Assembly: GCA_016700095.1 (NCBI GenBank)
Contig: CP065002.1
Coordinates: 867,141-931,140 of the forward strand
Length of the DNA: 64,000 nucleotides
Reading direction: 5' to 3'
From: Candidatus Woesebacteria bacterium
Lineage (GTDB): Bacteria; Patescibacteriota; Microgenomatia; UBA8517
Shown: in pieces, positions 3,352-61,321 of the stretch
Position numbering within the stretch: the stretch's first letter is position 1
How the letters are laid out: every line of letters begins with the position of its first letter
Notes under the pieces: generated by a model
Told to the model about the DNA's origin: nothing
The model's input: the letters and a program-made list of their open reading frames with translations, nothing else
Database searches by the model: none
Position numbers and translations under genes: made by a program

Positions 3352-4724
3352 ATGCTTATATCTTCATCCATCATCCCACTTTCATTATAGTTTACCGTTA
3401 TCCATTTTGTTATTTCTTTTGGCTGATAAGTGCCCAAATCATACCAATTTCCACTTTTTGGTTGTGACCAAATGATAATTTCCGGAGGATTTAACTCCCA
3501 TGCGGCAATAGTGTTTTGTTGAACGTTGGGAATTTCCAAATACCAACCATAATTGTCTACCCACGGTTTTGGAGGTAAAGTTTTCGAGTACACATAAAGC
3601 GACGATGGTAATCCCATTAAGTAGACACTCTCTCCGTACGTAGACACATCACTAATACGATGCGCCAAATTAACGTCTTCGGTACCATAAAATCTAGTCT
3701 CTTTACCCCAATCGTTTGTTATTACTCGCGGGACAATTCCGATAACTAATAAGATACCGGAAATAAGCGCAATTCGTCTAACTTGCCTACTTCTATTTGA
3801 AAAATATGCGGTAAGAAGTATCAAAAAACACAAAGCCGCCTGGAAATGAAAAAACGAAAATCTTGGATAGACCGAAACGAAAGATCCACCGAGGAAAAAA
3901 AGTACAAGCATAATTGTTCGATCTTTGATAATTATATTTCTTGCCTTCACTACTCCAAATACCACAGGGAAAGACAGCAAGGTTAAAATTAGAATATCCT
4001 GGTTTCGCAGTTGCATTTGAACATAGCCGGGAAATTTACTCCAAAACGTGAACGGGTACCATACTACCCAATTTACAAAATATGCCAAGGATCCTTCGAT
4101 GGAAAGTTTAGTCAACAAAATGAAACCAAAGTAGAAAGGTGGAAAAAAAGACGACAGGATAGCTTTCTTGTTTCGCGAATAAACTACGATAAACAATAAG
4201 AATACAATTAAAAATAAACCGGCTGTTTGTTTAATTAAACACGCAATTGAGATAAAACTACTCGCAAGTGCGAAATCGGTCCACCGGGCACTTCCGGTAA
4301 GCGATCGTATTCCGAAATATGTTCCGGCAAGCAAAAATGGCACAAATGCCAAATCGAACCATAGCATATTACCGTCAAGGAAAGGTTGTAGTAAAACGTA
4401 ATAAAGAAGTGCCAACAACGAAATATGTTTATTACCGGTAAGCTTCGAGGCTATTAAATAGACATATAAATCGATAAATATAATAAATATCCAGGTTAAC
4501 AACTTTAAGGCAAAAACATTGTAACCCCATAATGAATACCACAAAGATAACATTCCCGTCAGCATTGGCGGGTATGGATGAATCATGTCCCCAAAAAGTG
4601 CAAATCCGTTATCAAATAAATATGGATATGCTAGCATTTCTGGCCATGCAGTAAATTTCAGACTACCAAGAAAAAACACATGAAGCGAAATTAGTAGTAG
4701 TAGGCCGACAATTGTTTTCTTCAC
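3333..4724 (-). CDS. Polytopic membrane protein, putative GT-C glycosyltransferase (PMT_2/DUF2029-like), with an extracytoplasmic C-terminal domain
   Basis: About 10 predicted TM helices followed by a roughly 130-aa hydrophilic W/Y-rich C-terminus. Sits in an operon with GT2/GT4 genes. No clear DE motif, so the family is uncertain. Confidence 0.45.
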   Translation of the reverse strand: MKKTIVGLLLLISLHVFFLGSLKFTAWPEMLAYPYLFDNGFALFGDMIHPYPPMLTGMLSLWYSLWGYNVFALKLLTWIFIIFIDLYVYLIASKLTGNKHISLLALLYYVLLQPFLDGNMLWFDLAFVPFLLAGTYFGIRSLTGSARWTDFALASSFISIACLIKQTAGLFLIVFLLFIVVYSRNKKAILSSFFPPFYFGFILLTKLSIEGSLAYFVNWVVWYPFTFWSKFPGYVQMQLRNQDILILTLLSFPVVFGVVKARNIIIKDRTIMLVLFFLGGSFVSVYPRFSFFHFQAALCFLILLTAYFSNRSRQVRRIALISGILLVIGIVPRVITNDWGKETRFYGTEDVNLAHRISDVSTYGESVYLMGLPSSLYVYSKTLPPKPWVDNYGWYLEIPNVQQNTIAAWELNPPEIIIWSQPKSGNWYDLGTYQPKEITKWITVNYNESGMMDEDISIWKRKN

Positions 4725-4733
4725 ACTTATATT

Positions 4734-5564
4734 CTACTTCTTAATACCGATAACAGCCAGGCTAGAACCACGTTTCGCGCAAGTTGTTATTAAATTGAAA
4801 GGCGCATAAACAATATTTTTGAAAAAGGCTTTTCTAAGGTTTACTAAATTAAATTTCATTAATGCACCTATACTTGCAACGTCAAAGATCCCCGACCATG
4901 AACCCCACCACACTATTTCAAATCCAGCTTTTCTGATAATCATTTTTAAGGTATTTGGTGTGAAGTGGTGAACGTGTTCATTGGGCATGAGATATCCCCA
5001 ATTATTACCCCGTATCTTTGCATCAAAACCACCGAAATTGGGAACATCGATATAAACCAAACCTTTTATTTTTAAAACCGCATAAATTTTTTTGACAACC
5101 GCGACAGGATCTTCAACATGCTCGAAGGTATGATTCATAATGACAACGTCGAAATAATTTAGGGGAAGTTTTGCTTTTTCGAAAGTCGAATTGGTTGTTT
5201 TAATTCCTTTTTTGTTCGCATATTTAAAAGACGCCGATGGTTCGACTCCCCACACCTGCCAACCATGATCTTTAAATATTGATAGCATTGTACCGGTTGA
5301 AGATCCGATATCTAAAATTTTTCCTTTCTTTTTGTATCTTGATATTGTTTGAAAGCGACGTATAAAAATATTTTTAAACAATTCTTCGTCACTTCGATAC
5401 TCTTTGTCATCGCGATGATAATTATCGTATTTTTCGAAATCGCGACAGTTAGTGCGCACTAAACCACATTCCAAACACTCTACAATGTCTTTTCCATTAA
5501 CTTCGAATAAATGTTTATACTTGTCCGATTTACAATATTTACATGTCATATTAATAACCAACAC
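4734..5564 (-). CDS. Class I SAM-dependent methyltransferase with an N-terminal CxxC...CxxC zinc ribbon
   Basis: CKYCKS...CLECG zinc ribbon, then motif I ILDIGSSTGTM and motif II VVIMNHTFEHV. Confidence 0.7.
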   Translation of the reverse strand: MLVINMTCKYCKSDKYKHLFEVNGKDIVECLECGLVRTNCRDFEKYDNYHRDDKEYRSDEELFKNIFIRRFQTISRYKKKGKILDIGSSTGTMLSIFKDHGWQVWGVEPSASFKYANKKGIKTTNSTFEKAKLPLNYFDVVIMNHTFEHVEDPVAVVKKIYAVLKIKGLVYIDVPNFGGFDAKIRGNNWGYLMPNEHVHHFTPNTLKMIIRKAGFEIVWWGSWSGIFDVASIGALMKFNLVNLRKAFFKNIVYAPFNLITTCAKRGSSLAVIGIKK

Positions 5565-6396
5565 CGGGAGTCAGGAGTTTTCTTTTAATTTTTTTAAGCG
5601 GTGTTTCAAATACAGCTCTTTTTTTGAATGAAGTTTTCATTATGCACCAAGGTGATCTAACAAAAGATGGTCGTTCTCTGAAAAAACTTTCCGGGTAATA
5701 GTAATTTTTTGCTACTTCAATTCCCATTTCATACTTTAGTTTTTTCTTACGTTTTGGTACCAACAAATCACCTTTGTCACCATGTGATCTTTGCAAAAAA
5801 GTCATATGCATATAGGGGGCGTGTATAAATTTGATTTTACGCGCAGATCTGTCCTGAATCATCTTCTTGTCCTTATCCGACCAACCCCATGTACCATGTG
5901 GATTTGTCGACGATAGACCGGGAATCATTCTGTTTATTCCCCTTAATCCCAAATGACCCTTTTTCCCCGCAATTTGATAATTGCCAGCGCTTTCATCCTG
6001 GTAATGAAAGATATCTCCTACCATATTTATACTGGGAACAAACACTGACTCGTACGTGAGTCCTCGTACTTGTCTTATGAAATCCGTAATGTCGCGTATT
6101 GATTTTTCCCACCATACTTCATCTGCATCCACAACCATAAACCAATCCGTATTTGTCGCACTTAACATGTCGGCTCGAACCTCTCTGAATTGTTCCGGAT
6201 TAACTTCGCCAACTAATTTTAGATCGATTTTATTAGGATAACGGTGTTTCAACTCTTTAGCAATTAACACACTATCATCCGTACTCCCCGTATCCCACAA
6301 CAACAACTTGTCAACGTAATCAATTACGCTTTGTACCGAATACCACAGAAAACGGTCTTCATTTTTAAATAAAGTATGTACTGATATGGTGTTCAC
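5551..6396 (-). CDS. GT-A-like glycosyltransferase (DXD-containing), family uncertain
   Basis: TLFKNEDRFL...LLWDTGSTDDS...FMVVDADEVWW matches the GT-A nucleotide-sugar binding layout. Confidence 0.5.
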   Translation of the reverse strand: MNTISVHTLFKNEDRFLWYSVQSVIDYVDKLLLWDTGSTDDSVLIAKELKHRYPNKIDLKLVGEVNPEQFREVRADMLSATNTDWFMVVDADEVWWEKSIRDITDFIRQVRGLTYESVFVPSINMVGDIFHYQDESAGNYQIAGKKGHLGLRGINRMIPGLSSTNPHGTWGWSDKDKKMIQDRSARKIKFIHAPYMHMTFLQRSHGDKGDLLVPKRKKKLKYEMGIEVAKNYYYPESFFRERPSFVRSPWCIMKTSFKKRAVFETPLKKIKRKLLTPGVGY

Positions 6397-7697
6397 TTTG
6401 ATTTATTAAACTCGTAAATTACACATACATAAGTTGCGATAAACAAAAATAAATTACTTAATCCTCCAACTATTACCGGAGCAAAAACACCTCGTGTCGG
6501 CGTTAGATATATGATGCCCAAAATTACAAACGGCAGCTGAATAAAGGTAAGCAAAGTAATGAGTTTAGGCTTCGAAAAAGCGTATATTAACAAATTAACA
6601 GACGGCACCGACAACATAAAAGGAATAGATCCGGCAATAAGCCATTTTAATAAACCACTTGCAACACTGTACTTGTCACCAAAAAACGCTATCACATACG
6701 GAGATACTACGATTCCCGCAAGCAGACCAAAACACATGAGTACAGTCAACCATACAGTCTTCATGAAATATTTTTTTAAGTCATTACTTTTCAAACTGGC
6801 ATATCTCGGAGCTAACACTCTCGCAAAACTTCCGGCAAGAAGCGGAATTCCAAACGACAATTGTCTTGCGGCAGAAAATATCCCTGTTTGGTAGGGCGTC
6901 AAAACTTGCAGTAATAAAATCGTATCAATTCGCCCATTTACGGCACCAGCGATACGTGACAACGCCATCCAAGAAGAAAAGTTAACAAACCCCTTCTCGA
7001 TATTTTTATAATTAATACGAAAAACTACCTGTGTTTTTTGCCAAAAGAAAGCAATAATAAAGGAAATAATATAGCTACCTGCATATACCATCATCGTATT
7101 TATTAACGTCAAGCCAAAGAATGACGACATCATTAAAGTTAGTGCAAGTCTGATTCCACCAATCAACATACTCAAAAGTGCTGATAATCCAAAATTTTTC
7201 TGCGATTGAAAAACTTGTATTTGAAAATCGACAATTAGAAAACCTGCAATCGCCAAGGCCGAAAACACGGTAAGCATCTTTTCTTCTGACTTTAAAACAA
7301 ATGATGAAATAACAGGCGACAACAAAGTAAGCACGACGATAAAAATACAAGCCGAAATAATACGTATTGCAAATACCGTATTTAGAGTTTCTTGTGCTTT
7401 GTCAAACTTTTTTTCTTTCAAATAGTTGGAGACATATCTAAACAAAGTTGATCCCAAACCCATATCACCTATCGCTATCATTATCGCAATGAAACTTAAT
7501 GCAGCGGAAATAATACCGAAAAGTTCAGGTCCCAGTTCTCGTCCGGCAAGTATCGTAAACATAATCGTAAATAATGATGCAATTATGCTCCCCATAAAAA
7601 GAACAGCTGTATCTTTAAAAGTATTTGAGAGAATGATGTTTCTAATTTTTGTTATCATGTTGAACTTTTTTTTCAGGACTAAACCAAAGCGCGACAA
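6393..7697 (-). CDS. Wzx-like oligosaccharide/polysaccharide flippase (MOP superfamily)
   Basis: 434 aa with about 12 TM helices. The N-terminal region with K/R-rich loops is typical of the polysaccharide biosynthesis protein (Wzx) family. Sits inside the glycosylation operon. Confidence 0.6.
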   Translation of the reverse strand: MSRFGLVLKKKFNMITKIRNIILSNTFKDTAVLFMGSIIASLFTIMFTILAGRELGPELFGIISAALSFIAIMIAIGDMGLGSTLFRYVSNYLKEKKFDKAQETLNTVFAIRIISACIFIVVLTLLSPVISSFVLKSEEKMLTVFSALAIAGFLIVDFQIQVFQSQKNFGLSALLSMLIGGIRLALTLMMSSFFGLTLINTMMVYAGSYIISFIIAFFWQKTQVVFRINYKNIEKGFVNFSSWMALSRIAGAVNGRIDTILLLQVLTPYQTGIFSAARQLSFGIPLLAGSFARVLAPRYASLKSNDLKKYFMKTVWLTVLMCFGLLAGIVVSPYVIAFFGDKYSVASGLLKWLIAGSIPFMLSVPSVNLLIYAFSKPKLITLLTFIQLPFVILGIIYLTPTRGVFAPVIVGGLSNLFLFIATYVCVIYEFNKSK

Positions 7698-10350
7698 TGG
7701 CTATAACAACAAGAGACAATGTCGTGTAATACAAACCCCATCTTACATACACTTGTGGTCCGAATTCCAGTTTATATGGAGAGTTTGATGGTTTTATATA
7801 AAAAGCATTTACCATGGAATACGCTGGGATGCTTAATGACGTACTTTGTAAATATGTAATTCTCCAACCGGGATGGAATGCGTCGGTAAATACAATCCAT
7901 CCGTTTTCTTTTTGTGGACTTAACTCATACACAGTCGGGTTTTTCTTTTCAAATTCTAGATTGCTAGATGCGGGTGGTTTATCATTTGTATCATCAGCAT
8001 ACACACGCACACCAAAGTGAGCCATGTAAGTCGAGGAATGGTTTTTTGCTTTATTCCATTCATCGGCGGTAATAAGTGCGACTGTATTAACAGAATTTAT
8101 TCCACCTAGATTTGTAATCGTAAGTTTATTGTCACCATCAAATAGTTTAATGCCTTGTGTGAACCATCTGAATTGCGTCTCACCACTATCTTTATTAAAA
8201 GCTTCACTTACAATCTCACCTTGTTCATTGCCTATTTCATATCTTAATTTCGAATCCATGCCCCCCAAACTTCGTATCGCAAGAATATAACTGGCATCCT
8301 GTACTTCGCCAAAATTAACGACAATTTTTTCACCAATTTTTTCTGAGAGAAATGATCCCAGACGATAATCAAAAGTTTTTGTTTTAATGCCTCGAATTAA
8401 TAACTGGTATTTAAAATCTAAATATTTATCATTATTAAAATACGCCCATTCACTCGCAAATTTTTTAGGGTCAACATAATCCTTTTGTAGAAAAGTCATT
8501 GTAAAATCATCCTCGTTGGTTCCATTAAAAATAATGGTTGCGCTTTCTGAAGCAATTTTATCCAGCAAAAGCGGATTCCACAGACCGTCTTCGAAATACG
8601 CGTTGATTTTGTTAGGCAAACCATCATCGCCAAACTCGGTTTCAATCTCAGGTCCGACTACAGCCAGTAGTTCATCCGCCTTAAATATTCTTGGTACACT
8701 ATTATCAATTTTATAAAAGGAAATATCGTTACTGTCGCGTTCTTTTTTCAACTCAGTATTATTGTTTAGTGCCATTTGCAATCTGTTCCAATCTTTTTGT
8801 TCTTCTCCATTTAACTTATATGGATTTCTGTGATCTTTGGATAATACAAGATACTTAATTCCCAACAATCGATACCAAGCTATATATTTATCGGTTTGAT
8901 AAATGTAATTATATTTATCTGAACTTCCAACAGTCAGATTAGCCAGAGGTCGAAGATTAGGCATATCACTTGCATTTAAAGCTGGGTTGTTCTCGGTTTC
9001 AAAGGTCGAAGGATGTTTGTCCGGGAACCAGAGTGAGCGATAATATTCATGATCCTCACTTAATATGGTGTTTATTTCACTTAGTTCATCGGGGTAATTT
9101 CTTATCGACAAAACAAAATTCATATTCCCGAGCATCGCCGGCGCTACCAGGAAGAGTAGATAAATATACGCAAATAAAGTAATACTTTTACCAAGAAGCG
9201 TATGTTTTGACAACTTGTCGCAAATTGTAGTTAGAAAACTACCCATTGAAATTCCCGCAAGTAACATTACCGGAACAAAAAATTTACTGTTATCTCGAAA
9301 CGACTCACCAAACGGTAAATTCGTTACTGCAAACGAGTATATATTTCCCATTGGCGGAGTTGCCCCCTTAAGTAAGAAAATCAAAAATAGCAAGATAAGA
9401 ATGATTTTAAGTTCACGCTTATCTTTACTGCTAAACAAATTTCCAAAAACCGTAACAGGAATTAGTAAAAAATACCATGCAGGGTACGTGATTTCGCCAA
9501 AGATATTTTTATACCAATGAGGCTGATAGAAAAATATGCCGTTCACAAACGAAATAAAATTCAAATTGGTGACAAAGGAAGCTGAATTTTCAGGATGAAT
9601 TTTTACTAAAGGAATTATCCAATACGAATTAATACATATCCAAGGCAACACAATTAACAATAGATTTTTTATTATCAAACGCCATTTACCGGGTGCTTCG
9701 ATAAAACCCACAAGTAATGCAACAAAAAGAGCAATCAATGCGATCCGTGGATCGGCAATCGTATTTAGAGTGAGAACAAAAAGAGCAAGGAAATATTTTT
9801 TCGGGGATAATTTGGAAATAACGTTGGTTAGTGTCAGTATCGTGAATGGAAATATTCCATAAGAAAGTGCAACACCAACCTGACCACCATCAATTAGTAG
9901 TATGAAATATGTATTTAGTGTGTAAAACAACGAAGCAAAAAACCATACCAACGGTGGATACTTTAATTTTTTTGCAAGATAAATAGGCCCAATAAGTGAA
10001 AGGATGATTGCTGGGAAGAAAAATAATAAGTTAATGATTATATTGTTGGGCAAACCGAGGTATTTACCCATAATTCCATAGAGCATTAGGATTGGTTTAA
10101 TAAAAAGCCTCGGATCGATTGTTCCTAAATTACCATCTCTGTTTATCCAGGAATACGGTTCACTGAAAAGATCGGTAAACTCACGATTCGTAAAGTTGGG
10201 TGCATCACCCCACGACAAATCGGTGTGAATAATGAGGGGATAGAAAACGATAATAACAGGAATAAGTAAACCAATAATAAAAAACGCTACATCGGCGACC
10301 TTATAAGTCCCTGGTATATTAATGCGAATCTTGTCAGTTTTCTTTTGCAT
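7642..10350 (-). CDS. Giant polytopic membrane protein (902 aa), putative GT-C glycosyltransferase (AftD/YfhO-like architecture) with a large extracytoplasmic C-terminal domain
   Basis: About 14 TM helices in the first 420 aa, then a roughly 480-aa soluble region. The N-terminal loop carries a WGDAPNF...D-rich motif. Confidence 0.45.
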   Translation of the reverse strand: MQKKTDKIRINIPGTYKVADVAFFIIGLLIPVIIVFYPLIIHTDLSWGDAPNFTNREFTDLFSEPYSWINRDGNLGTIDPRLFIKPILMLYGIMGKYLGLPNNIIINLLFFFPAIILSLIGPIYLAKKLKYPPLVWFFASLFYTLNTYFILLIDGGQVGVALSYGIFPFTILTLTNVISKLSPKKYFLALFVLTLNTIADPRIALIALFVALLVGFIEAPGKWRLIIKNLLLIVLPWICINSYWIIPLVKIHPENSASFVTNLNFISFVNGIFFYQPHWYKNIFGEITYPAWYFLLIPVTVFGNLFSSKDKRELKIILILLFLIFLLKGATPPMGNIYSFAVTNLPFGESFRDNSKFFVPVMLLAGISMGSFLTTICDKLSKHTLLGKSITLFAYIYLLFLVAPAMLGNMNFVLSIRNYPDELSEINTILSEDHEYYRSLWFPDKHPSTFETENNPALNASDMPNLRPLANLTVGSSDKYNYIYQTDKYIAWYRLLGIKYLVLSKDHRNPYKLNGEEQKDWNRLQMALNNNTELKKERDSNDISFYKIDNSVPRIFKADELLAVVGPEIETEFGDDGLPNKINAYFEDGLWNPLLLDKIASESATIIFNGTNEDDFTMTFLQKDYVDPKKFASEWAYFNNDKYLDFKYQLLIRGIKTKTFDYRLGSFLSEKIGEKIVVNFGEVQDASYILAIRSLGGMDSKLRYEIGNEQGEIVSEAFNKDSGETQFRWFTQGIKLFDGDNKLTITNLGGINSVNTVALITADEWNKAKNHSSTYMAHFGVRVYADDTNDKPPASSNLEFEKKNPTVYELSPQKENGWIVFTDAFHPGWRITYLQSTSLSIPAYSMVNAFYIKPSNSPYKLEFGPQVYVRWGLYYTTLSLVVIAIVALWFSPEKKVQHDNKN

Positions 10351-10496
10351 GTAATGTTAATTTATAAATTGTTAATCCAAGCAAACCAAGGTAGAGGTAT
10401 TTTGATAATTGAATTGCCCGACCGGGGTGATGTGTGGCAAGAAAAAAACAAACTATAAATAGAATTACCGATGTTATACTTACTAATACACGTTTC
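10351..10496. promoter_or_regulatory. Divergent intergenic region between the 902-aa GT-C gene (minus) and the YfhO/GT39 pair (plus). Presumed bidirectional promoter.
   Basis: This is the only strand switch to plus for multi-gene transcription in the first 30 kb. AT-rich with TATAAT-like hexamers. No experimental support. Confidence 0.3.
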
Positions 10497-12458
10497 ATGA
10501 TCAAATTACCAAAGGTATCAACACGCAGTTTAATGCCGTACTTTTTCATAATTCTATCGACTATAGTATTATACCTCCCGGTTTTAATAAATAGTGATCT
10601 TTTTTTGAATAGAGGTAACGACTTAACCGAATTCTTCTGGCCGATTTATTTATATGTCAAAAACCAGATTTTAGCGACACATAAATTGCCATATTGGAAT
10701 GGCATGTTCTTGTCAGGTGTGCCACTTTTACCTGACCCCCAATCGCCTATCTTTTATCTTCCCAATATCATTTTTATGGTCTTGCCCATCGGAGTTGCTT
10801 TTATCATTTCATCGATAATACATACTGCATTTGGGGGAATCGGAACATATTTGGTATGCTACAAGGGACTAAAATTTAAGCTACTACCTTCATTGTTTGG
10901 ATCCTTTGCATATCTACATCTGGCTCGGTATAGCGGCTTCATAGAAGCCGGTCATTTCGGCTTAATAGCGGCCACAACATACATTCCTTACGTTTTTTTA
11001 TCACTAATTATGATCTCAAGAAATCCCTCCCTCACATGGTCGGTAATTTTTGCTTCAAGTTTAGCGGGTATATTTTTCACTCACCCGACAACATTTGTAT
11101 ACGCAGCACTTTTTTCATTTCCGGTATTTTTCACTCTTACTAATTTAACTAGGCGAGCACATAAAACTTGGCTTTTTTATATTATCGGCGGACTTATTTC
11201 ATTTGGATTTACGGCAATAACACTGTTACCTCAATTAAACTGGGTTCCTCAAACTAATAGATTTTTATTATCGGTTGATAAAGATGTATACCCCAAGTGG
11301 AATTCTATTGGCGAATATGCTCAAAGCATTTTCGCTCCGTGGCTTAATGGCATATCAGGGATTAGATCGATCGACTCGGAAAAATGGCTTTTTATTGGTA
11401 TATTGCCAAGTATATTGGCGGTATATGGTTTTACGCAAATTAAAACCGCAAAGAAGAAAGTATGTATAATGCTACTTCTATTTACCTTTGCCCTATTTTC
11501 TCTAAATAACTTGTCACCATTTTACACTGCGCTTCTTAATCAAAATTGGTATGTTTTCGGCCGTGTCTCAACGCGAGTATGGTTTATGGTTTCTTTTCCG
11601 ATTATTTTGCTGGCAACATATGCAATTAATGTTTTAAGCACTAAACACACCAGATTAGCTTACATTCTTGCAATGCTAGCAGTTGTTGAGATTACAACAA
11701 TTTCACTAAGCCACATTACCAAACCGATACGTAACGATAGACTTATAGCAAGTAAAAACGTCTTGTCTTTTCTTGCAAACGACAAAGATAGATTTAGAGT
11801 ATTTTGTACCACCAGATGTTTCTCTCAAAAGGATGTAGCCGAATACGGCTTAGAAACAATCGAAGGATACTCGACCCTGCACCAAAAAAATTATTACCAG
11901 AGTGCATGGGGAATGACCGGAGCTTATTGGAATTATTACACACTCACGCTTCCGCCAATCGGGTCATACAAATATGGGAAATTAGATCCAAATTATGAGA
12001 GTCTGGGCAATTTCAATACAAAATATATCGTATCGCCTTATGAAATAGTCCATTCCGATATCGTGTTTCTTACTGCTATTGATGGTTTTAATATTTATTC
12101 TAATAATAAATACAAACCACGTGGTTATTTTGTTGAAAACGACAAAACGCAGACAGCCGATATTAAATACTACTCTCCCAACAAAATCGTTATTAACGTC
12201 AACACCACATCAAAACATCTAATTCTCGCCGAAGTGTTTAGCCCCGGATGGATTGCTTTGGCCGACACGAAAAAAGTGCAAGTGCAAGAAACCCCCAATG
12301 CACAAAGAGCAATAGATTTACCATTAGATACTAAAATGGTTGAATTATATTATCAACCCGTCGGATATAATTTGGGAAAAACTATTACTGTTGCGACTTT
12401 GATTGGTTTATCGTTCTATGTATTAAGTGTTAACTTGAAGAAAATCAAACTACCTTAA
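10497..12458 (+). CDS. YfhO-family membrane glycosyltransferase (GT-C-like)
   Basis: FFWPIYLYVKNQILATHKLPYWNGMFLSGVPLLPDPQSPIFYLPNI closely resembles the conserved YfhO N-terminal signature (hexose-P-C55-dependent glycosylation of teichoic acids). The ORF track start at 10434 is a GTG codon. ATG codons at 10497 and 10536 are more plausible starts. Confidence 0.6.
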   Translation: MIKLPKVSTRSLMPYFFIILSTIVLYLPVLINSDLFLNRGNDLTEFFWPIYLYVKNQILATHKLPYWNGMFLSGVPLLPDPQSPIFYLPNIIFMVLPIGVAFIISSIIHTAFGGIGTYLVCYKGLKFKLLPSLFGSFAYLHLARYSGFIEAGHFGLIAATTYIPYVFLSLIMISRNPSLTWSVIFASSLAGIFFTHPTTFVYAALFSFPVFFTLTNLTRRAHKTWLFYIIGGLISFGFTAITLLPQLNWVPQTNRFLLSVDKDVYPKWNSIGEYAQSIFAPWLNGISGIRSIDSEKWLFIGILPSILAVYGFTQIKTAKKKVCIMLLLFTFALFSLNNLSPFYTALLNQNWYVFGRVSTRVWFMVSFPIILLATYAINVLSTKHTRLAYILAMLAVVEITTISLSHITKPIRNDRLIASKNVLSFLANDKDRFRVFCTTRCFSQKDVAEYGLETIEGYSTLHQKNYYQSAWGMTGAYWNYYTLTLPPIGSYKYGKLDPNYESLGNFNTKYIVSPYEIVHSDIVFLTAIDGFNIYSNNKYKPRGYFVENDKTQTADIKYYSPNKIVINVNTTSKHLILAEVFSPGWIALADTKKVQVQETPNAQRAIDLPLDTKMVELYYQPVGYNLGKTITVATLIGLSFYVLSVNLKKIKLP

Positions 12459-12489
12459 TTATGATTGCAAATTATTGCATGTTTAGTCA

Positions 12490-13980
12490 ATGAAATTAGT
12501 AATTTACAAAAACTACAAGATTATTTTAATATTAGTACTTTCTAGTTTACTACGTTTTTCCAACTTGCCTGCAAAAATTACTTTTACCGCAGATGAAGCA
12601 TATCTGTCCTACGTCGCCCAAACACTGATTAAAAACTTCCACATCATATGGATTGGTTGGAGTGCATTAGGGTTTGACGTTTACTTAGGGCCCTTATGGA
12701 TATATGTCATTTATCCATTTCTATATTTATCGCACGGAAATCCCATTATTCTGGGTTATATTTCCGGTTTTCTTGGAGTACTAACAACTTTTGCAATTTA
12801 TAAAATCGGCTCTAAATTTTTTAATCACCAAGTAGCCATCTTGTCATCACTAAGTTACGCACTATTGCCCTTATTAATTTATTATGATCAAAAACCTTAT
12901 CCACCCGCCATACCACTTATTAGTCTTCTTGTGACATTTGCTTTACTGAAAGTAAGAAAAAGCGCCAAGTGGTGGGTCGTAATTTCATTTCTTTATGGAC
13001 TGGTTTTTAATATTCACCTTTCATTGGTTTTACTTGCTTTTCCTATCCTTTACGCATTATTTACTGGAAAAAAATATCTTAACAAAAAAATATTAGTCAG
13101 TTCATTTCTGGTATTTATTGTTACCGTTTCACCGCTTATTGTTTTTGATTATTATAAGAAAGGGTACAACATACAAGCTCCCCTAAGAGCGTTTAATGCT
13201 AGTCAAAACTCTACCGAAAAAACCTCCGGTCATTACGACGAATTGTTTTCTTCCTTTGGACGAATTTGGTATTTGAATTCATTTAGTGAAGTCGCCGACG
13301 AAATAATACCAACATGCAAAGAAAATGCGCTATCGACTTACTCACGACCTCCGCTTGGCATATCTATCGTTTCGTTGGCAATTTTTATATCCTTTGCTCT
13401 TAATAAAAAAACATGGAAGGATTATTCGCGTAAAATGTTACTTTTTGTCAGTTTAACATTTATCATTCCTTTTACGTTAGTTACCGTTATTAATCCTGTT
13501 GAATATTATCTGCTGGGGTTTTTCCCGATTTTACTCATTATTACATCAGTAGTTATTTACGACCAAAGAAAAATAGTCAAGATGTTTTTATTGCTACTTA
13601 TGTTTTCGTGTTTGATCTATGCACCATTCGTAACCCTAAGAGCAAATACAAATTACGGTCTTGAGGCAAAAAAAGAACTGGCTCAACAAGTTGCCCAATT
13701 AGTCGACGGCAAACCTTATTACCTGCAAGCCCGTGGCGGTTGTCAAAGCGTGGGTGGATGGCGATATCTTTTTTCCATCTATGGGCAACGACCCGCAAAA
13801 AGCTATGACGACGTAAGTTTTGGCTGGCTTTATCCTGATGAAATAACAAGTGAAAAAAGCGTTTACGAAGTATTAGTTGTTGAGAAACGGGCAAGTGATC
13901 ACACTAATTTATATACTAATTACGTTAACAAGGTAACATCCGGGGGTTATGAGGCTTTGATTTATAAAATTAGTGATTAG
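12490..13980 (+). CDS. GT-C glycosyltransferase, ArnT/PMT (GT39/PMT_2)-like
   Basis: N-terminal TM helix then FTADEAYLSYVAQ (DE motif), with more than 10 TM helices after it. 496 aa. Confidence 0.65.
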   Translation: MKLVIYKNYKIILILVLSSLLRFSNLPAKITFTADEAYLSYVAQTLIKNFHIIWIGWSALGFDVYLGPLWIYVIYPFLYLSHGNPIILGYISGFLGVLTTFAIYKIGSKFFNHQVAILSSLSYALLPLLIYYDQKPYPPAIPLISLLVTFALLKVRKSAKWWVVISFLYGLVFNIHLSLVLLAFPILYALFTGKKYLNKKILVSSFLVFIVTVSPLIVFDYYKKGYNIQAPLRAFNASQNSTEKTSGHYDELFSSFGRIWYLNSFSEVADEIIPTCKENALSTYSRPPLGISIVSLAIFISFALNKKTWKDYSRKMLLFVSLTFIIPFTLVTVINPVEYYLLGFFPILLIITSVVIYDQRKIVKMFLLLLMFSCLIYAPFVTLRANTNYGLEAKKELAQQVAQLVDGKPYYLQARGGCQSVGGWRYLFSIYGQRPAKSYDDVSFGWLYPDEITSEKSVYEVLVVEKRASDHTNLYTNYVNKVTSGGYEALIYKISD

Positions 13981-14705
13981 GTGTGTAACTTTTTTGATAT
14001 ATACCTAGTCCAAAATACCAGAATATATGTTTGAATAAATATCGCCCATTTAACGGTTTGCAAATAGTTGCCGACTATCGCCGATTCACCGACTCTTTGT
14101 AAATATGTTACAGGTACTTCAACGAATGAAAGTTTGTTGGAAACGGTAAGTAAGGTTAATTGAGTATTAAAAAGAGGCGACTTCTCAAATCCCCACTTCC
14201 TTTTAAGAATATTTAGAGCTTTTCTAGAAAACAATTTATAAGTACAGCCCACATCCGTTAAAGCGTTGGTATTAAAAAGCACTTCAATAGTTTTTGCTTC
14301 AATTACATTGGCAAATTTACGAAACACGCCCATACCGGCACCGGAGAGTGACGAAATTAAACTCGTACGTGAACCAAGTACTACTTCAAAATCATTTGAG
14401 TAAACCAGTAGTCGCTCCAGGTCTTTTGCCAAAAAGCTTCCATCCGGTTCACACGCCACTATAAGATCACCTCTTGCCGTGTTTAATCCCTTCTGAAAGG
14501 CATATCCATATCCCTGGCGATCTTCGTATACTATTTTTACACCGGTTTTATTTACTTCTTGGTCTGTACCTTTTTGGGCATTATTGTTTACTACTATGAT
14601 TTCATCAACAAATTGTGTTTTTTGAAAACTTTCGATTACTCTGCGAATCGTTTTTTTCTCGCGGTATGTGGCTAAAACTAAAGAGACTGTTTTTCCTTTA
14701 TACAT
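13977..14705 (-). CDS. GT2, DPM1/GtrB-like polyprenol-phosphate sugar synthase (soluble form)
   Basis: VSLVLATYREKKTI...EIIVVNNN...ACEPDGSF; 242 aa. The Gtr-like arrangement with the adjacent small membrane protein and GT-C is described in the findings. Confidence 0.65.
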   Translation of the reverse strand: MYKGKTVSLVLATYREKKTIRRVIESFQKTQFVDEIIVVNNNAQKGTDQEVNKTGVKIVYEDRQGYGYAFQKGLNTARGDLIVACEPDGSFLAKDLERLLVYSNDFEVVLGSRTSLISSLSGAGMGVFRKFANVIEAKTIEVLFNTNALTDVGCTYKLFSRKALNILKRKWGFEKSPLFNTQLTLLTVSNKLSFVEVPVTYLQRVGESAIVGNYLQTVKWAIFIQTYILVFWTRYISKKLHT

Positions 14706-14707
14706 AT

Positions 14708-15139
14708 TTATTTACATTTATAAAATTCATAAACCGATATTGTGAGCCCCAAGATAAAAGCCTGAAACATATAAATCATTGTTCGCTCGGCCCACACGCC
14801 AACCCCTAGAGCGAGCAATAATTCCGCAAAGGCTAAAAAAAACAACGATATCACAAAAATAACTTTGCTAGTTGCCCCAAGCATTATTACGGCAAGAATC
14901 AAACTAATCATGACAATAATATTTATCGTTAGTGGCAAAAAGGGGTGAAAATATCCGGCAGAATGAAGCAAGACAAGAAGTATTAGAATAATATTATAGG
15001 TAAATAGACCGGAAAGATGTTTATTTGCCCATGCTTTTGTTTTGACCTCTTTATGTCCCCAAAAGGTTCTTGACAGTCGTTTATTTATGTACTTTTTTAG
15101 ATCTTTTAACATAATTATAAAGAGGAAATATGAGCACAC
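14708..15139 (-). CDS. Small 3-4 TM membrane protein, possibly a GtrA/GtcA-like lipid-sugar flippase. Function unproven.
   Basis: 143 aa with hydrophobic helices. Sits between a GtrB-like GT2 and a giant GT-C. No recognisable GtrA signature, and the true start is uncertain. Overlaps the 3' end of the upstream gene. Confidence 0.3.
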   Translation of the reverse strand: MCSYFLFIIMLKDLKKYINKRLSRTFWGHKEVKTKAWANKHLSGLFTYNIILILLVLLHSAGYFHPFLPLTINIIVMISLILAVIMLGATSKVIFVISLFFLAFAELLLALGVGVWAERTMIYMFQAFILGLTISVYEFYKCK

Positions 15140-18038
15140 ATATCACAACCGTCGCCAAACTTACAAATAGTCCAAAGTAATAATATTTCTGTGTGGTATA
15201 GAATATTGTAAATTCCTGTGTAGTGCTATTCCCGGGCATATACCAAGCGTTTGCGTATCCATGGGCACTAAAGTGTAGTGGTTTTCCCAAATATGAGGCG
15301 CTAACGATATTCCAGTTCGGACTATATTTTTCCAAAAACACTAGCAAGTAATTATCATTGATATTTTCCACCTTCACCTTGTACTTCGTTGGGTTAACTT
15401 TTGTAAAAGATACCGTTGGAGTATGTATCGTGTCAGCATTTTGTTCTATTAAAAAAAGCTTATTATCATAGATACGCTTAAAGGAGATATTTTCAAAATA
15501 TGTTTTACTTCTCTTCTCCCGACTATCAACTGGGATTTCTATCACCACATTCATCGTTGAACTTGCTCTGACTGGTTCAACAAAAATTTCTTTTTTATTC
15601 CAATCGGTATCTTCATCGACTTTAGTGGGTAAAACCTTATACTTCGCAGCTCCGCTTTCTTGGACTATATTAACATTCGGTGTATTACCATAGATATATT
15701 TGTATTCATATGAGAACAGATAATTGGCGTATGGATTGAATTCATCTACCGGGACAATTAGACTCTTCTCATTAATACCATCATTAAACACGATCAACAC
15801 ATTGTCGTTATTCAATAATTCTTCTCCTTTGATATGGAGATTTTCATTTCCCTTTAATACCAGATCTTTGCTGATCAGGTTACTGTTCTCAGGATAAACA
15901 ATATCCACATTATGTTCACCCTGCGTGACCTTAATATTTTTGAGTATGTAAAATGTATCGGTTTCAACAATTTCTGTATCTTTATTTAACAGATCCGGGA
16001 AAATTACGCTTAGATCACTTCCGTTGTAACCTCTTTTTTCGATCGCTAATTCATAAATTCCCTCAGGAACATTTATTAAATACCTTTGACGATTTCCAAC
16101 CGGATTACTGCCATAGGTCGTATTGTCTAACTGGAATATGTTTTTCTTGATATCTTGCGAATTATCTATCTTATTTACTTCACTGTCACCAGCGAGAGTA
16201 ATTACGCGATTTGGATCAAGATATGGCAGTAACGTATCAAATACAGAATCATCAGAATTATTTGTATATAGTCCGTTTGCAGTAAGAATTTTACCAGGAT
16301 AGTCAGCATTTTGGTAAAAAGTCCATTCACCGAAAACCAGTTTATCTTTTTCCGGTATTTCTTTTGAATGATATATGGATACGGCGTCATTTTTCATGAA
16401 TAAAGTATCAGCATTCAAAAACGATAGAGACTTAAATACCGAGTCGTAATTCTCCTGTTTGATATTATTATAGATTCCTTGCAATATAGGCTTTAGTCCC
16501 TTACCCAGAAAAACAAAGGATGGTGCCACGGTTTCTTTGGACGAAAATAGATTAAGAACGGTTTCTGTACCCCTATATCCCCATTTAAACTGTTCCAGTT
16601 CATCCTCGGGATAAACAACGATACGAGCACTACTCTCACTATTATCAAGATATTTTTTTGTTTCCCATACATAGTCGGGGATTTTAACAAAAAAACTATC
16701 TGATTTTTGTGGACGAAATATTTTACCTGTTATAAGTGGATACTCATAAAGTAAGCCTCCAATTACAAAAATTACTACTCCCAAATATATCAAGCGCTTG
16801 CCAAGTATTATATTGAGAATTTTCTTGTCACCAAACCTTTTTAATATATTTTCAACAAGTAATCCGGAAAGCACGGCATATGCCAATATCACGTAAGGCG
16901 TAAATATATACCATGGACTTCTGAAAAACGAAAAGTACGGTATATATTTAGCCATCAAATTATATAAACTACCTGTTGGTTCATGTAATCCGGCTCCCAT
17001 AAAGATACCGATTACCAACATAATTCCTGTATATACATACAAATAGTTTTTCTTATTGTTTAGTAAGATGTAGGAAATAATTACAAGCGTTGGAACAACA
17101 AAACTAAACAGAATAAAGGGGAGTTTATAAAAATAGTTTAATGCGTATGGAATATACATCGGAAAACCCGATTGATCAACGGCATACCAATCCCAAGCTC
17201 CTTGTAATCTAATAACATTCAGAAGGCTGGTGTTTTCAGATAATGCCGCAACCCAGTTTGTATATCCAATATTCTCCAGAGTTAATACTGCTCGATCCGC
17301 TAGCATAAAGTGCGAAAACGGTACAACCCAATATAAATTTGACATAATGATAACTACACTCATTAACATTGCACCTAAGAAGATATGTCTGATTTCTCGT
17401 TTTCTAAAAGGTAATATTGTTAGAAAGTAAATTATCACTCCACCCATTAATGTAATAATATATGCAGGATTTATCCCGGCACCTGAAGTAATCATGGAAA
17501 ACAAAACACTATAAAAGAGTAACTTCCCATTCGATAGGGCATCAAATACATATCGATTGGCTAACCCAATAAATAGCGGTAAACCTACCATAACTGCGAG
17601 GTTAGCAACTTTAACGTTTTCCCATGTGTTGAACAAATAAATATTATATGTATAAATAAATACAAGTATTAGCTGAGCAAGTTTATTGTTTTTAAGAAAG
17701 GTTCGCGAAAGATAATAAGAACCAAAAACAATTGAAGAAAACCAAAATACAAGTGAGATTATTTGCACATGCCGTAAATTAAATCCCAAAACATGAGGTA
17801 TAACTTGAATCAAATGAAAAAACCAACCGGAAGTTGACGTTGTCGCATCCGCGCCGGTTCCAATTGTGTCATTCCAAACAAAAAAGCGTCTTTCAAACCA
17901 GACCAGAGGATCAAGTGGAAAGTTGGTATCTAGTCCATTAATGATGACATCGGGTCTACCAACAAACCACAGCAATGGAGTTAGTGACATGGCAAACATT
18001 ATAATTGTAAGCCAATGCTCTTTAATTATTTGTTTCAT
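15081..18038 (-). CDS. Giant GT-C-like membrane glycosyltransferase (985 aa), AftD/DUF3367-like
   Basis: The N-terminal loop GRPDVIINGLDTNFPLDPLVWFERRFFVWNDTIGTG resembles the DTKLDL...W.P..G.G signature of alpha-(1->3)-arabinofuranosyltransferase-like proteins. About 14 TM helices and a roughly 550-aa extracytoplasmic C-terminus. Confidence 0.5.
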   Translation of the reverse strand: MKQIIKEHWLTIIMFAMSLTPLLWFVGRPDVIINGLDTNFPLDPLVWFERRFFVWNDTIGTGADATTSTSGWFFHLIQVIPHVLGFNLRHVQIISLVFWFSSIVFGSYYLSRTFLKNNKLAQLILVFIYTYNIYLFNTWENVKVANLAVMVGLPLFIGLANRYVFDALSNGKLLFYSVLFSMITSGAGINPAYIITLMGGVIIYFLTILPFRKREIRHIFLGAMLMSVVIIMSNLYWVVPFSHFMLADRAVLTLENIGYTNWVAALSENTSLLNVIRLQGAWDWYAVDQSGFPMYIPYALNYFYKLPFILFSFVVPTLVIISYILLNNKKNYLYVYTGIMLVIGIFMGAGLHEPTGSLYNLMAKYIPYFSFFRSPWYIFTPYVILAYAVLSGLLVENILKRFGDKKILNIILGKRLIYLGVVIFVIGGLLYEYPLITGKIFRPQKSDSFFVKIPDYVWETKKYLDNSESSARIVVYPEDELEQFKWGYRGTETVLNLFSSKETVAPSFVFLGKGLKPILQGIYNNIKQENYDSVFKSLSFLNADTLFMKNDAVSIYHSKEIPEKDKLVFGEWTFYQNADYPGKILTANGLYTNNSDDSVFDTLLPYLDPNRVITLAGDSEVNKIDNSQDIKKNIFQLDNTTYGSNPVGNRQRYLINVPEGIYELAIEKRGYNGSDLSVIFPDLLNKDTEIVETDTFYILKNIKVTQGEHNVDIVYPENSNLISKDLVLKGNENLHIKGEELLNNDNVLIVFNDGINEKSLIVPVDEFNPYANYLFSYEYKYIYGNTPNVNIVQESGAAKYKVLPTKVDEDTDWNKKEIFVEPVRASSTMNVVIEIPVDSREKRSKTYFENISFKRIYDNKLFLIEQNADTIHTPTVSFTKVNPTKYKVKVENINDNYLLVFLEKYSPNWNIVSASYLGKPLHFSAHGYANAWYMPGNSTTQEFTIFYTTQKYYYFGLFVSLATVVICVLIFPLYNYVKRSKKVHK

Positions 18039-19680
18039 ATTCTTTCTTTATTTCATCAGTAATTTCAATTAATGATTCAATATCTCCTTGCCATTTATAG
18101 GCTATAATTGCATTACTTGGAATATTATATTCTTTTATTGCATTAAATAACTTATCTTTATCTCTAAAGTATCCAAAACCTCGACCGTCATACTCTTTGT
18201 AACCCTCCTCTTTGATCTCCCAAAGAAATTTGTTTTCATAAAATTGGACAGGAAGTTTTTCCTCGCTATACCAAACCAATAAAGTCTGGCCCAATCCTGA
18301 TTGAAAAGGTAATATTTTGTCGGTTTCTGGAAGTCCAAAATAAGAAGTATCGCTTTGGGTATAAAAAACTACCCTGTCAGGTAATTTGGTATGGCTGGCT
18401 TTAACTGCTAGTAATATATTTTTGCGTATTATTCCATAATCAACAAGTGTTTTAATTTGTCCAGTTAGGGCAACAATGTTTGTAATTATAACTATCGAAA
18501 GCGCGATATGTTGTGCTTTTTTATTTTTAAAAAGAGAATCCACTATCATAATAAGGAGTATAAACACTCCAACGCTTGTTAAGTATAGATTTCTCGAGTC
18601 GAGAACATTAATCTTTCCAAACCGCTCTGGGGACAAAGCATATATTAAGCTGTTTAAAATTACATAAACATAGAAGAACAATATTATATTTTTCTTTTCT
18701 TTGTCTTTGTGTCTTATGTACACAATATATATAAGGTATGAAAATATTACAAAAAAGGCTAAGGATAACCCCTCAAGAATTATTTTCTGTGCAAACAAAT
18801 CAAAGGTGGTTGTCCCAATAACAGGTCGTAACGATTCGGGTATTTTCGCCGCAATGAAATAACTAATTTTTATGAAGTACTGCAGGGGAATCACTGTTTG
18901 CGTAACAGTCTTCATGGGAAACGTAAGTAAGTTGTAAGTAATATCGGTCAAGCTTTGAGTTTCTGTTATCATGGGAGTAGCTCCGACGTTGTGTATAAAT
19001 AACATACCCGCTCGAAGTACAAAAAAGGATACTCCTGTTGCCAATGTTGCTATAAGTTGTTTATGTTTATTTTTGTTATTACTTAGATACAAGATTAGGG
19101 CATACAAAGCAAACATACCAATAGCGATTTCTTTGAACAATAAAGCGGCGATAAGCAACACAATCGAGTATGACCATCTGCGAAAATTTCCAGTTTTTCC
19201 ATATTTTATAAAATAATAGATAGAGATCAACGTGAATGAGGTTGCTCCATGTGTATTAATATTTGCCCCAACCCACGTGGTTGCTTGATAAATTGAAGCG
19301 GAAACACCAAATAGTAATGCAACTATCGATGCATAATATTTCCGCTTTAAATTCAATAAGACTAACTTGTAAACAAGAACAACATTTACTAAGTGCCACA
19401 CTAAACTTGCTCCAAACCACATTTGGTAATTTAAGTTAAATAACTTAAATATTGTTAGAAATACTATTCTTTGAAGTGGATTGTAATGATTTATTTCTAA
19501 TCGAAAGTAGCTAATTACCGTCACAAGAGGATTCTTTCCGACATCTCCCAAAACATCCGCAAACGCCAACCATTCATCTTGAGCAAAAAACGATTGGAAA
19601 CATCTTATGTAAGAAAGACATACTACCGCCAAACATGCAAACAAACCATATTTATCTAGATATTTACTTTTATTTTCCAT
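18022..19680 (-). CDS. GT-C-like membrane glycosyltransferase of the 'FxQD(D/E)' subfamily
   Basis: FFAQDEWLAF follows the first TM helix. About 11 TM helices and a roughly 150-aa soluble C-terminus. Paralogous N-terminal motif to the genes at 23351..25321 and 25318..27987. Confidence 0.45.
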   Translation of the reverse strand: MENKSKYLDKYGLFACLAVVCLSYIRCFQSFFAQDEWLAFADVLGDVGKNPLVTVISYFRLEINHYNPLQRIVFLTIFKLFNLNYQMWFGASLVWHLVNVVLVYKLVLLNLKRKYYASIVALLFGVSASIYQATTWVGANINTHGATSFTLISIYYFIKYGKTGNFRRWSYSIVLLIAALLFKEIAIGMFALYALILYLSNNKNKHKQLIATLATGVSFFVLRAGMLFIHNVGATPMITETQSLTDITYNLLTFPMKTVTQTVIPLQYFIKISYFIAAKIPESLRPVIGTTTFDLFAQKIILEGLSLAFFVIFSYLIYIVYIRHKDKEKKNIILFFYVYVILNSLIYALSPERFGKINVLDSRNLYLTSVGVFILLIMIVDSLFKNKKAQHIALSIVIITNIVALTGQIKTLVDYGIIRKNILLAVKASHTKLPDRVVFYTQSDTSYFGLPETDKILPFQSGLGQTLLVWYSEEKLPVQFYENKFLWEIKEEGYKEYDGRGFGYFRDKDKLFNAIKEYNIPSNAIIAYKWQGDIESLIEITDEIKKEYETNN

Positions 19681-21106: not shown

Positions 21107-21574
21107 ATGAATAGTGATGTTTTTATCCATCCACTTTCGGATGTGAGGACAACCAACATTGGTTCAAAAACTAAAGTGTGGCAATTTTCAGTTATTCTTG
21201 AAGGGGCAGTTATCGGAAAAAACTGTAATATCAATTGTCAAACCTTCATCGAAAACGACGTCGTTATCGGCGACAATGTCACGGTAAAATGCGGTGTTTA
21301 TATCTGGGATGGAATACGGTTGAAAGACAATGTCTTTATTGGCCCAAATGTCACTTTTACTAACGATAATTTTCCGAGATCGAAACAATACCCGGAAAAA
21401 TATTTACCGATAATCATAGAAAAAGGTGCTTCGGTCGGTGCAAACTCCACTATTCTCGGCAATATTACAATAGGGGCAAACGCAATGATTGGAGCAGGTA
21501 GTGTGGTTACAAAAAACGTACCACAAAATCAACTTTGGATGGGAAGTCCGGCAAGATGTGTTAAAGAAATATGA
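21107..21574 (+). CDS. Left-handed beta-helix (hexapeptide-repeat) sugar N-acetyltransferase, FdtC/WxcM/PglD-like
   Basis: Repeating [LIV]GxN[VC]x[IV] hexapeptides ([50 protein letters not shown]). 155 aa. Confidence 0.7.
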
Positions 21575-59553: not shown

Positions 59554-59555
59554 AA

Positions 59556-61268: not shown

Positions 61269-61321
61269 GTTACTGACAAAATCTAATTTGCTCTTTGCGA
61301 TATATAATTCTAATTGACAAG

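Follow-up and report, generated by a model that had tools for sequence, protein, structure and literature searches.

A putative compact branch of the YfhO superfamily within a GT-C-rich gene cluster of Microgenomates

Introduction

This analysis concerns a 64-kb window (the whole stretch of DNA that was analyzed, within which all positions are counted) from a metagenome-assembled genome of Candidatus Woesebacteria, which belongs to the Microgenomates of the candidate phyla radiation (CPR)/Patescibacteria, and in particular two plus-strand open reading frames (ORFs) that it carries: ORF A, which spans 10434..12458 in its maximal form of 674 aa, and the adjacent ORF B (Table 1). An earlier reading of the sequence, hereafter the original prediction, took them for a YfhO-family protein and a PMT-like enzyme, both glycosyltransferases (GTs) of the GT-C fold, set amid minus-strand operons. 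The layout that it described is borne out by the strands of the ORFs between 1430 and 20707, where all remaining ORFs of at least 120 aa with family or synteny support lie on the minus strand; two extra plus-strand ORFs in this interval are both nested inside minus-strand genes. ORF A is 100% identical to the NCBI protein IPM62_04445. With 131 homologues of ORF A and 70 of ORF B, full length at 30-53% identity and nearly all from Patescibacteria or unnamed metagenome contigs, the two ORFs are real genes. Below, we consider to which families they belong, which neighbors have been kept with them, and what kind of glycan they may help to build. Residue numbers of ORF A refer to the maximal ORF throughout; 21 is to be subtracted for the start at ATG 10497.

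ORF A and the YfhO superfamily

By transitive sequence evidence, ORF A is a compact, divergent branch of the YfhO superfamily. Its own match to the Pfam YfhO profile (PF09586, curated gathering cut-off 28.5 bits) is borderline, being present but sub-threshold and confined to the C-terminus, where aa 561-652 align with profile positions 742-835. The family assignment made in the original prediction is instead upheld by the scores of orthologues, by the relatives that a family profile reaches, and by a joint alignment with these relatives. When orthologues were scanned individually, six of nine passed the cut-off, with a maximum of 57.7 bits (passing orthologues, at 40-47% identity: P0071, 57.7; P0065, 50.7; P0083, 48.4; P0120, 35.9; P0024, 31.6; P0021, 31.0), and 11 of the 34 members of the ORF A family match Pfam YfhO at E<=0.01. 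The profile of this family (A1), searched against 1.84 billion representatives, returned 40,117 proteins at E<=1e-3, of which 2,488 reach E<=1e-30, and it extends to relatives of 730-820 aa in two stretches, one N-terminal and one C-terminal, with E-values of 1e-64 to 1e-81. All ten such relatives that were scanned pass Pfam YfhO, and three of them (P0305, P0322, and P0326) match profile positions 4-597, which represent the membrane domain. In the joint alignment with the longer YfhO relatives, Asp63 (in the motif RGNDL), Pro86, Trp88, Gly95, Pro97, and Tyr108 are invariant, as are Gly173-His174, Arg276, and Arg377. We call the ORF A branch compact because the longer proteins carry an extra insert of ~110 aa, hydrophobic by eye, and ~45 more residues in the outside domain. 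The peptide EFFWPIYLYVKNQILATHKLPYWNGMFLSGVPLLPDPQSPIFY, residues 66-108 of ORF A, had been put forward as a YfhO N-terminal signature, and this holds in part: the motif is indeed shared with proteins that pass Pfam YfhO, but the Pfam match of ORF A itself misses the N-terminus, and Asp101 of the LPDPQ segment is restricted to the compact clade.

The predicted fold agrees with that of a membrane-embedded GT-C. The AlphaFold2 (AF2) model of ORF A (mean predicted local distance difference test score, pLDDT, 89.3; predicted template modeling score, pTM, 0.88) is disordered over residues 1-29, forms a helical bundle over 30-428, continues into a beta-rich domain over ~430-642, and ends in a last helix at 643-670. 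Hydropathy gives ~11-12 membrane segments, and the beta-rich outside domain of ~215 aa is placed between the last two of them. In the first outside loop, the invariant Asp63 is followed by a conserved LPxWN...GxP...FYP motif; this Asp and its flanking motif are invariant in the 34 family members and in distant YfhO proteins alike. A sequence-profile search of the PDB with ORF A gave chance matches only, and neither this search nor the fold searches turned up a YfhO structure; the fold searches also return the protein-modifying GT-Cs STT3, PglB, AglB, and Pmt4.

The compact clade has a feature of its own in the outside domain, an invariant CxxxC (FRVFCTTRCFSQ) at residues 458/462 (window ~11805-11819). 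The longer YfhO relatives do not have this pair, which may form a disulfide or bind a metal.

Some relatives are much longer, at 1047-1141 aa (P0059 and P0120, also P0191 and P0215). In P0059 and P0120, an ORF A-type domain is fused to a PMT_2-type domain. Such a fusion could have served as a "Rosetta stone" for a partnership between ORF A and ORF B, a case that is weakened by the fact that the fused PMT_2 domain has no BLAST similarity to ORF B. Another relative, P0118 (967 aa), shows a weak GDSL-lipase-like match instead of the PMT_2-type domain.

The start of ORF A and a hidden mini-gene

ATG 10497 is the best start of ORF A, giving a protein of 653 aa, and GTG 10434 is an unlikely one. ATG 10497 is favored because an independent assembly calls a product of exactly 653 aa, because the N-termini of homologues align at residues 28-34 of ORF A, and because the model is disordered before residue 30. 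The doubt that the original prediction cast on GTG 10434 was therefore justified, all the more since a start there would run 65 nt antisense through another gene, described next. Of the two alternatives that it offered, ATG 10497 is the best start and the other needs correction, as the second in-frame ATG lies at 10533 rather than 10536. The deposited IPM62_04445, titled "hypothetical," has 617 aa; it starts at TTG 10605 (MNRGNDL...) and has thereby lost the conserved first membrane helix.

The segment 10351-10498 is not empty but coding. It belongs to a conserved 54-aa protein encoded on the minus strand, which has two membrane helices and carries the motif (T/A)NH(P/W)GxAI. Its gene, situated upstream, runs into the start of the gene for a 902-aa membrane protein. 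The ATG of this mini-gene and ATG 10497 of ORF A share the palindrome CATG, and the same overlap recurs in locus L018. Orthologues of 50-55 aa occupy the same position in nine loci (L001, L004/L008, L007, L009, L011, L016, L018, and L019), the L004 and L008 proteins being identical. The mini-gene has no Pfam match and is absent from the gene calls of the independent assembly.

One argument for GTG 10434 had to be considered and was set aside. The sequence GGGGTGAT precedes this codon and would pair as a ribosome-binding site at -12.4 kcal/mol. Read on the other strand, however, it spells the conserved His-His-Pro-Gly codons of the mini-gene, and we reject it as a ribosome-binding site because these codons explain the motif and because the genome is mostly without such sites: Shine-Dalgarno sequences are generally lacking at the genes of the window, where the median pairing energy of -1.6 kcal/mol resembles that of random positions. 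By eye, a TATAAT-like box stands a few bases upstream of several start codons, for example at 21107, 31941, 32694, and 44312. The scarcity of Shine-Dalgarno sites together with these boxes suggests short-leader or leaderless mRNAs.

ORF B and its convergent neighbor

ORF B is an ordinary ArnT/PMT_2-type GT-C. It passes Pfam PMT_2 (PF13231) with 37.3 bits against a cut-off of 26.1 over aa 70-218, a domain that nearly all of its 70 homologues carry. Its AF2 model reaches a pLDDT of 90.5, and the top Foldseek match is ArnT (5f15; E 2.6e-7, TM 0.63), ahead of STT3, ALG12, PglB, AglB, and Pmt4. The invariant residues of the family include Phe32, Asp35, His51, and Trp54, of which Asp35 sits in an Asp-Glu pair within the first outside loop, and this loop aligns with the first outside loop of AglB in the family profile. 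To describe ORF B as a PMT-like GT-C is correct at the level of PMT_2 and of the GT-C fold, but goes too far beyond it: Pfam PMT (PF02366) finds no match at E<=0.1, PMT-type outside domains are missing, and the fold search ranks ArnT, STT3, and ALG12 above both Pmt4 and Pmt1/2. NCBI's title for the protein, "glycosyltransferase family 39 protein," is a generic one.

As a module, ORF B is accessory, and its usual companion is the GT2 gene at 13977-14705. Among the 21 informative species-representative loci, it lies next to ORF A in only one (L019), so the two-gene "island" seen in the window is not conserved as a unit. Among the loci examined that bear an ORF B, it adjoins an ORF A-type gene in six of seven, in varying order and orientation, and a GT2 of 243-265 aa in six of eight. 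Clear orthologues of the window's own GT2 occur in four of these loci (the window, L003, L019, and L032), while the GT2 of L031 resembles instead the one at 5551 in the window; the orthologues in L003, L019, and L032, at 58-62% identity, converge on their ORF B as they do here, and a GT2 is also adjacent to the ORF B-type gene at the P0133 locus. The window's GT2 matches Pfam Glycos_transf_2 at 57.5 bits, and a PDB search with it was uninformative. We infer that it probably makes the lipid-linked sugar donor of ORF B.

The two genes meet closely: ORF B and the convergent GT2 overlap by 4 nt at 13977-13980 (TAG on the plus strand, TAA on the minus strand). The terminator scan placed no terminator at this junction, and the two transcripts would therefore be antisense at their 3' ends. 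A GacI/GacJ-like pairing of the GT2 with the adjacent small membrane protein of 143 aa was also considered and abandoned, given that the latter has no similarity to the DUF2304 protein of a related locus and that its synteny follows the AftD-like gene and not the GT2. The small membrane protein has no family match in Pfam or NCBIfam.

A conserved cluster around ORF A

What has been kept with ORF A lies on its other side. In 17 of the 21 loci, ORF A is divergent from an orthologue of the 902-aa gene; the genes preceding the latter (Wzx, GT2, methyltransferase, and PMT_2) keep the order that they have in the window. The 902-aa protein has no Pfam match. An hhalign comparison of the ORF A family (A1) with the family of the 902-aa protein (A3) nevertheless gives a probability of 97.6% (E 4.6e-12) over the membrane bundle, and hydropathy reveals the same layout as in ORF A, namely a membrane bundle, an outside domain of ~460 aa, and a C-terminal membrane anchor; PTPS_related was found in two of 16 orthologues. 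These comparisons identify the 902-aa protein as a predicted distant GT-C paralogue of ORF A and as its conserved divergent partner.

On the far side of ORF B and its GT2, a protein of 3-4 helices, an AftD-like GT-C, and a 552-aa membrane protein are commonly conserved downstream, the last of them syntenic in L007, L012, L018, L019, and L020. The conserved neighbors of ORF A are thus the mini-protein, the 902-aa and other GT-Cs, Wzx, the methyltransferase, and a GT2 without membrane helices. A partner of the CsbB/GtrB type, that is, a GT-A enzyme with C-terminal membrane helices, stands beside ORF A in none of the 21 loci.

Table 1. Features of the window around ORF A and ORF B
Feature	Coordinates	Strand	Basis or remark
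Predicted compact YfhO-superfamily GT-C glycosyltransferase, 653 aa (ORF A)	10497..12458	+	Alternative starts GTG 10434, ATG 10533, TTG 10605
ArnT/PMT_2-type GT-C glycosyltransferase, 496 aa (ORF B)	12490..13980	+	PMT_2 match, AF2 model, Foldseek
Unannotated conserved mini-protein gene, 54 aa	10334..10498	-	Orthologues in 9 loci
902-aa membrane protein, putative distant GT-C paralogue of ORF A	7642..10350	-	hhalign, hydropathy, synteny
GT2 (GT-A), 242 aa, candidate polyprenyl-phosphate-hexose synthase for ORF B	13977..14705	-	Glycos_transf_2, synteny
Small membrane protein, 3-4 helices, called as 134-143 aa	14708..15139	-	Hydropathy, synteny with AftD-like gene
AftD-like GT-C, 985 aa, conserved downstream neighbor	15081..18038	-	Pfam GT-C_AftD, 31 bits vs cut-off 26
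Multi-pass membrane protein, 552 aa, weakly PMT_2-like	18022..19680	-	PMT_2 18.1 bits (below cut-off); 8 hydrophobic segments
Wzx-type (MOP family) flippase, core operon	6393..7697	-	Polysacc_synt 73.3 bits; synteny
PMT_2 GT-C, core operon	3333-4724	-	Pfam; orthologues in same order in most loci
Methyltransferase, core operon	4734-5564	-	Pfam; orthologues in same order in most loci
GT2, core operon	5551-6396	-	Pfam; orthologues in same order in most loci

Two further observations concern these loci. In L004, L005, and L008, a DUF5667 protein with a signal or anchor helix and a coiled region is encoded between the 902-aa-type and ORF A-type genes (at 7448-7981 in L004), and a paralogue of it is present in the window at 43701-44312; it may be a cluster-linked surface protein. 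In addition, the cluster is present, at 36-44% protein identity, in records titled "uncultured Gammaproteobacteria bacterium" (L006, L007, L009, L015, L018, L019, and L021-L024). Such titles on records with a Microgenomates-type cluster look like generic mislabels.

Divergent starts and regulation

It was proposed at the outset that the strand switch implies separate regulation of the plus-strand genes. This is doubtful, as the divergent start codons overlap in the window and in L018 and stand only 19-45 nt apart in the other loci, and promoters in such a space must overlap coding sequence. Judged from this spacing, with promoter regions that would themselves overlap, coupled control is more likely than independent control. 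A scan for consensus promoters and terminators found promoter-like sites no commoner than in shuffled sequence, and none in the divergent gap.

The wider glycan island

The window as a whole is an unusually GT-C-rich glycan island. It encodes ~14 multi-pass GT-C-like proteins, eleven GT2 and several GT4 enzymes, two Wzx flippases, several methyltransferases, and sugar-nucleotide enzymes. Four GT2 proteins have the GtrB/CsbB layout with two C-terminal membrane helices (1430-2269, 19670-20707, 32694-33614, and 35750-36688). The claim that ORF A is embedded with GtrB/CsbB-like synthases and a second GT-C is accurate insofar as GT2 candidates for lipid-sugar synthesis and further GT-Cs surround the pair, but no CsbB-type gene is the partner of ORF A. 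No GtrA-type flippase was recognized by family match.

Paralogues recur elsewhere in the island. Three tandem PMT_2-type paralogues of 548, 570, and 608 aa, 27-33% identical, lie on the minus strand at 57907-63912 and are followed by a 255-aa protein resembling their C-terminal parts. At 23351-27987, also on the minus strand, two adjacent multi-pass paralogues of 656 and 889 aa share 23% identity over ~585 residues; neither has a GT-C family match, and the 889-aa protein carries an F5/8 type C (discoidin) sugar-binding domain.

Comparison with known systems

Members of the YfhO family include the YfhO proteins of Bacillus subtilis and Staphylococcus aureus, which decorate lipoteichoic acid (LTA) with N-acetylglucosamine (GlcNAc), and Lmo1079 of Listeria, which adds GlcNAc to wall teichoic acid (WTA). 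ORF A shares with this family the GT-C fold, the multi-pass N-terminal bundle with an outside domain between the last two helices, the invariant first-loop Asp followed by PxW...GxP...Y, and the C-terminal beta domain and last helix that correspond to profile positions 742-835. It is shorter, at ~650 aa versus ~730-860; B. subtilis YfhO has 13 helices and, between the last two of them, an outside domain formed by a 389-aa loop (PMC5836110), whereas that of ORF A has ~215 aa. ORF A further differs in scoring under the Pfam cut-off, in having no adjacent CsbB-type GT-A gene, and in occurring in Patescibacteria rather than Firmicutes. The mycobacterial arabinofuranosyltransferase AftD, and with it AftA/Emb, is another comparison, with differences throughout: sequences are only 10-14% identical, AftD has twice the length, several carbohydrate-binding modules, and a bound acyl carrier protein, and nothing in the window gives evidence of arabinofuranose or decaprenyl-phosphate chemistry.

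For ORF B, the closest known systems are ArnT (GT83) and the bacterial PMT_2 enzymes (GacL, GtlB-type, CsdD/F), with which it shares the PMT_2 match, ArnT as the best fold match, an acidic first-loop motif, a small C-terminal outside domain, and a GT2 gene beside it, as in GT-A/GT-C pairs. It departs from these systems in that its GT2 has no membrane anchor and is convergent rather than in the same operon, in that no GtrA-type flippase was recognized, and in that it has no features of eukaryote-type PMTs. Multi-component transmembrane glycosylation systems combine a GT-A synthase, a GtrA or Wzx flippase, and a GT-C (PMC8035078). All of these parts, namely GT2 enzymes, a Wzx flippase (its flipping being predicted from family), and GT-Cs, are encoded in the cluster. 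In contrast to the one GT-C per decoration of the described systems, however, ~5-6 GT-C genes are conserved together here and ~14 GT-C-like proteins are found in 64 kb, and this abundance suggests glycan assembly outside the membrane rather than one lone side-chain decoration.

Proposed function and its rivals

What, then, do ORF A and ORF B do? We favor, at a probability of roughly 0.6, the joint reading that both are GT-Cs of a Microgenomates surface-glycan cluster and that their sugars most likely go to a secondary wall or surface polysaccharide, extended or decorated outside the membrane, teichoic acid being an unlikely acceptor. This reading builds on homology, fold, domain layout, conserved residues, and synteny, and a polysaccharide is preferred as acceptor because of the many GT-Cs, the AftD-like enzymes, and the Wzx flippase. 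The steps would follow the established GT-C mechanism and the multi-component glycosylation framework (PMC8035078), which come from other systems and not from this locus. A cytoplasmic GT-A would place a sugar on polyprenyl phosphate, a flippase would carry the lipid-linked sugar outward, and ORF A or ORF B would then pass the sugar to an acceptor outside, with the first-loop Asp (Asp63 in ORF A, Asp35 in ORF B) as the presumed catalytic base. ORF A would perform one step within the conserved core cluster, whereas ORF B and its GT2 would add an optional decoration. ORF A is probably co-regulated with the divergent operon of mini-protein, 902-aa GT-C, Wzx, GT2, methyltransferase, and PMT_2 enzyme. 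Donor and acceptor are likewise inferred in this scheme. Several results weigh against it. The YfhO scores of ORF A itself fall short of the cut-off, at 24.1 bits for the 674-aa form and 25.0 bits for the 653-aa form, and the NCBIfam scan of ORF A gave no match. ORF A has no donor synthase tied to it in particular. The GT2 paired with ORF B has no membrane helix by hydropathy, and its best NCBIfam matches, AglJ (76.5 bits, cut-off 325) and dolichyl-phosphate hexose transferase (47.3 bits, cut-off 375), are far below threshold. Finally, the scanned ORFs of the window yielded neither a priming phosphoglycosyl transferase nor a ligase nor a candidate acceptor gene.

The identity of the acceptor is where the alternatives diverge. 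The serious rival is protein O-glycosylation, which we consider possible although distinctly less probable: ORF A, ORF B, or both would move a polyprenyl-phosphate hexose to Ser/Thr of secreted or membrane proteins, such as surface-layer (S-layer) proteins, pilins, or disordered regions. PMT enzymes are known to O-glycosylate proteins in actinobacteria and eukaryotes, and ORF B, with its PMT_2 domain, has an Asp-Glu in the first outside loop as they do; STT3, PglB, AglB, and Pmt4 are among the fold-search matches; and the YfhO-family proteins PgtC2 and PgfM1/PgfM2 glycosylate Ser/Thr-rich protein regions in streptococci (PMC12041528). Set against this, the window encodes no Ser/Thr-rich ORF that could be a protein acceptor, ORF B is without the extra domains of true PMTs and is nearest to the lipid-modifying ArnT, and the Wzx flippase, the AftD-like enzymes, and the many cytoplasmic GTs of the conserved cluster fit polysaccharide assembly better. 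The streptococcal enzymes bear on the original prediction as well, because YfhO-family members that O-glycosylate proteins mean that membership of the family does not by itself point to teichoic acid (PMC12041528). Teichoic acid is in fact the least supported acceptor. In that scenario, which we regard as improbable, ORF A would act like the YfhO proteins of B. subtilis, S. aureus, and Listeria, taking a hexose from C55-P-hexose (a C55 polyprenyl phosphate hexose) made by a CsbB/GtrB-like synthase and placing it on LTA or WTA. Its homology to the YfhO family and the four GT2s of GtrB/CsbB layout in the window would fit. Yet no TagB/F-type, LtaS-type, or LCP family appears among the scanned ORFs of the window, which leaves the teichoic-acid decoration suggested for this locus unsupported, and no CsbB-type gene is paired with ORF A at any of the 21 loci. 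Our literature search for CPR/Patescibacteria with YfhO, GT-C enzymes, or surface glycosylation returned nothing relevant and no report tying these bacteria to such enzymes, while a genome study of Patescibacteria proposes rhamnose wall polysaccharides instead (PMC11809585).

Two other ideas concern how ORF A works rather than what it modifies. It is very unlikely, in our estimate even more so than a role in teichoic-acid decoration, that ORF A is not a transferase at all, having lost its activity to become a scaffold or acceptor-binding partner of the 902-aa paralogue or of ORF B. In its favor, the class as a whole retains both distant paralogues as neighbors, some genomes encode ORF A-type proteins with a second GT-C domain fused on, and a review has raised, as speculation, the need of some GT-C systems for an acceptor-binding protein of its own kind (PMC8035078); the first-loop Asp and its motif, however, are invariant across the 34 members and distant YfhO proteins, as expected of a preserved active site. 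More ambitious is the tentative idea, to which we give slightly less credence than to protein O-glycosylation, that the cluster is an assembly line in which polyprenyl-phosphate sugars are built into a wall or surface glycan, for the most part outside the membrane. It would be a functional analogue, in ultra-small CPR bacteria, of mycobacterial arabinogalactan/lipoarabinomannan (LAM) synthesis. Its parts may comprise the mini-protein, the 902-aa GT-C, ORF A, the AftD-like GT-C, the PMT_2 enzymes, Wzx, the GT2s, and the methyltransferase, and the mini-protein might join the two YfhO-superfamily paralogues in a single complex produced from an overlapping divergent promoter.

Significance

The advance made here is at the level of annotation and brings no new mechanism: ORF A adds a new, compact member to a superfamily already known. 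Its deposited entry, titled "hypothetical" and cut short at the start, receives a functional class, and a conserved mini-gene that had gone unannotated comes to light beside it. With ORF A, the YfhO superfamily extends in compact form across the Microgenomates. Of the by-products, the mini-gene and the conserved multi-GT-C cluster of these bacteria hold the most interest. The envelope of the CPR is almost unknown and matters for host attachment, and a cluster of predicted outside-acting glycosyltransferases provides a concrete handle on it.

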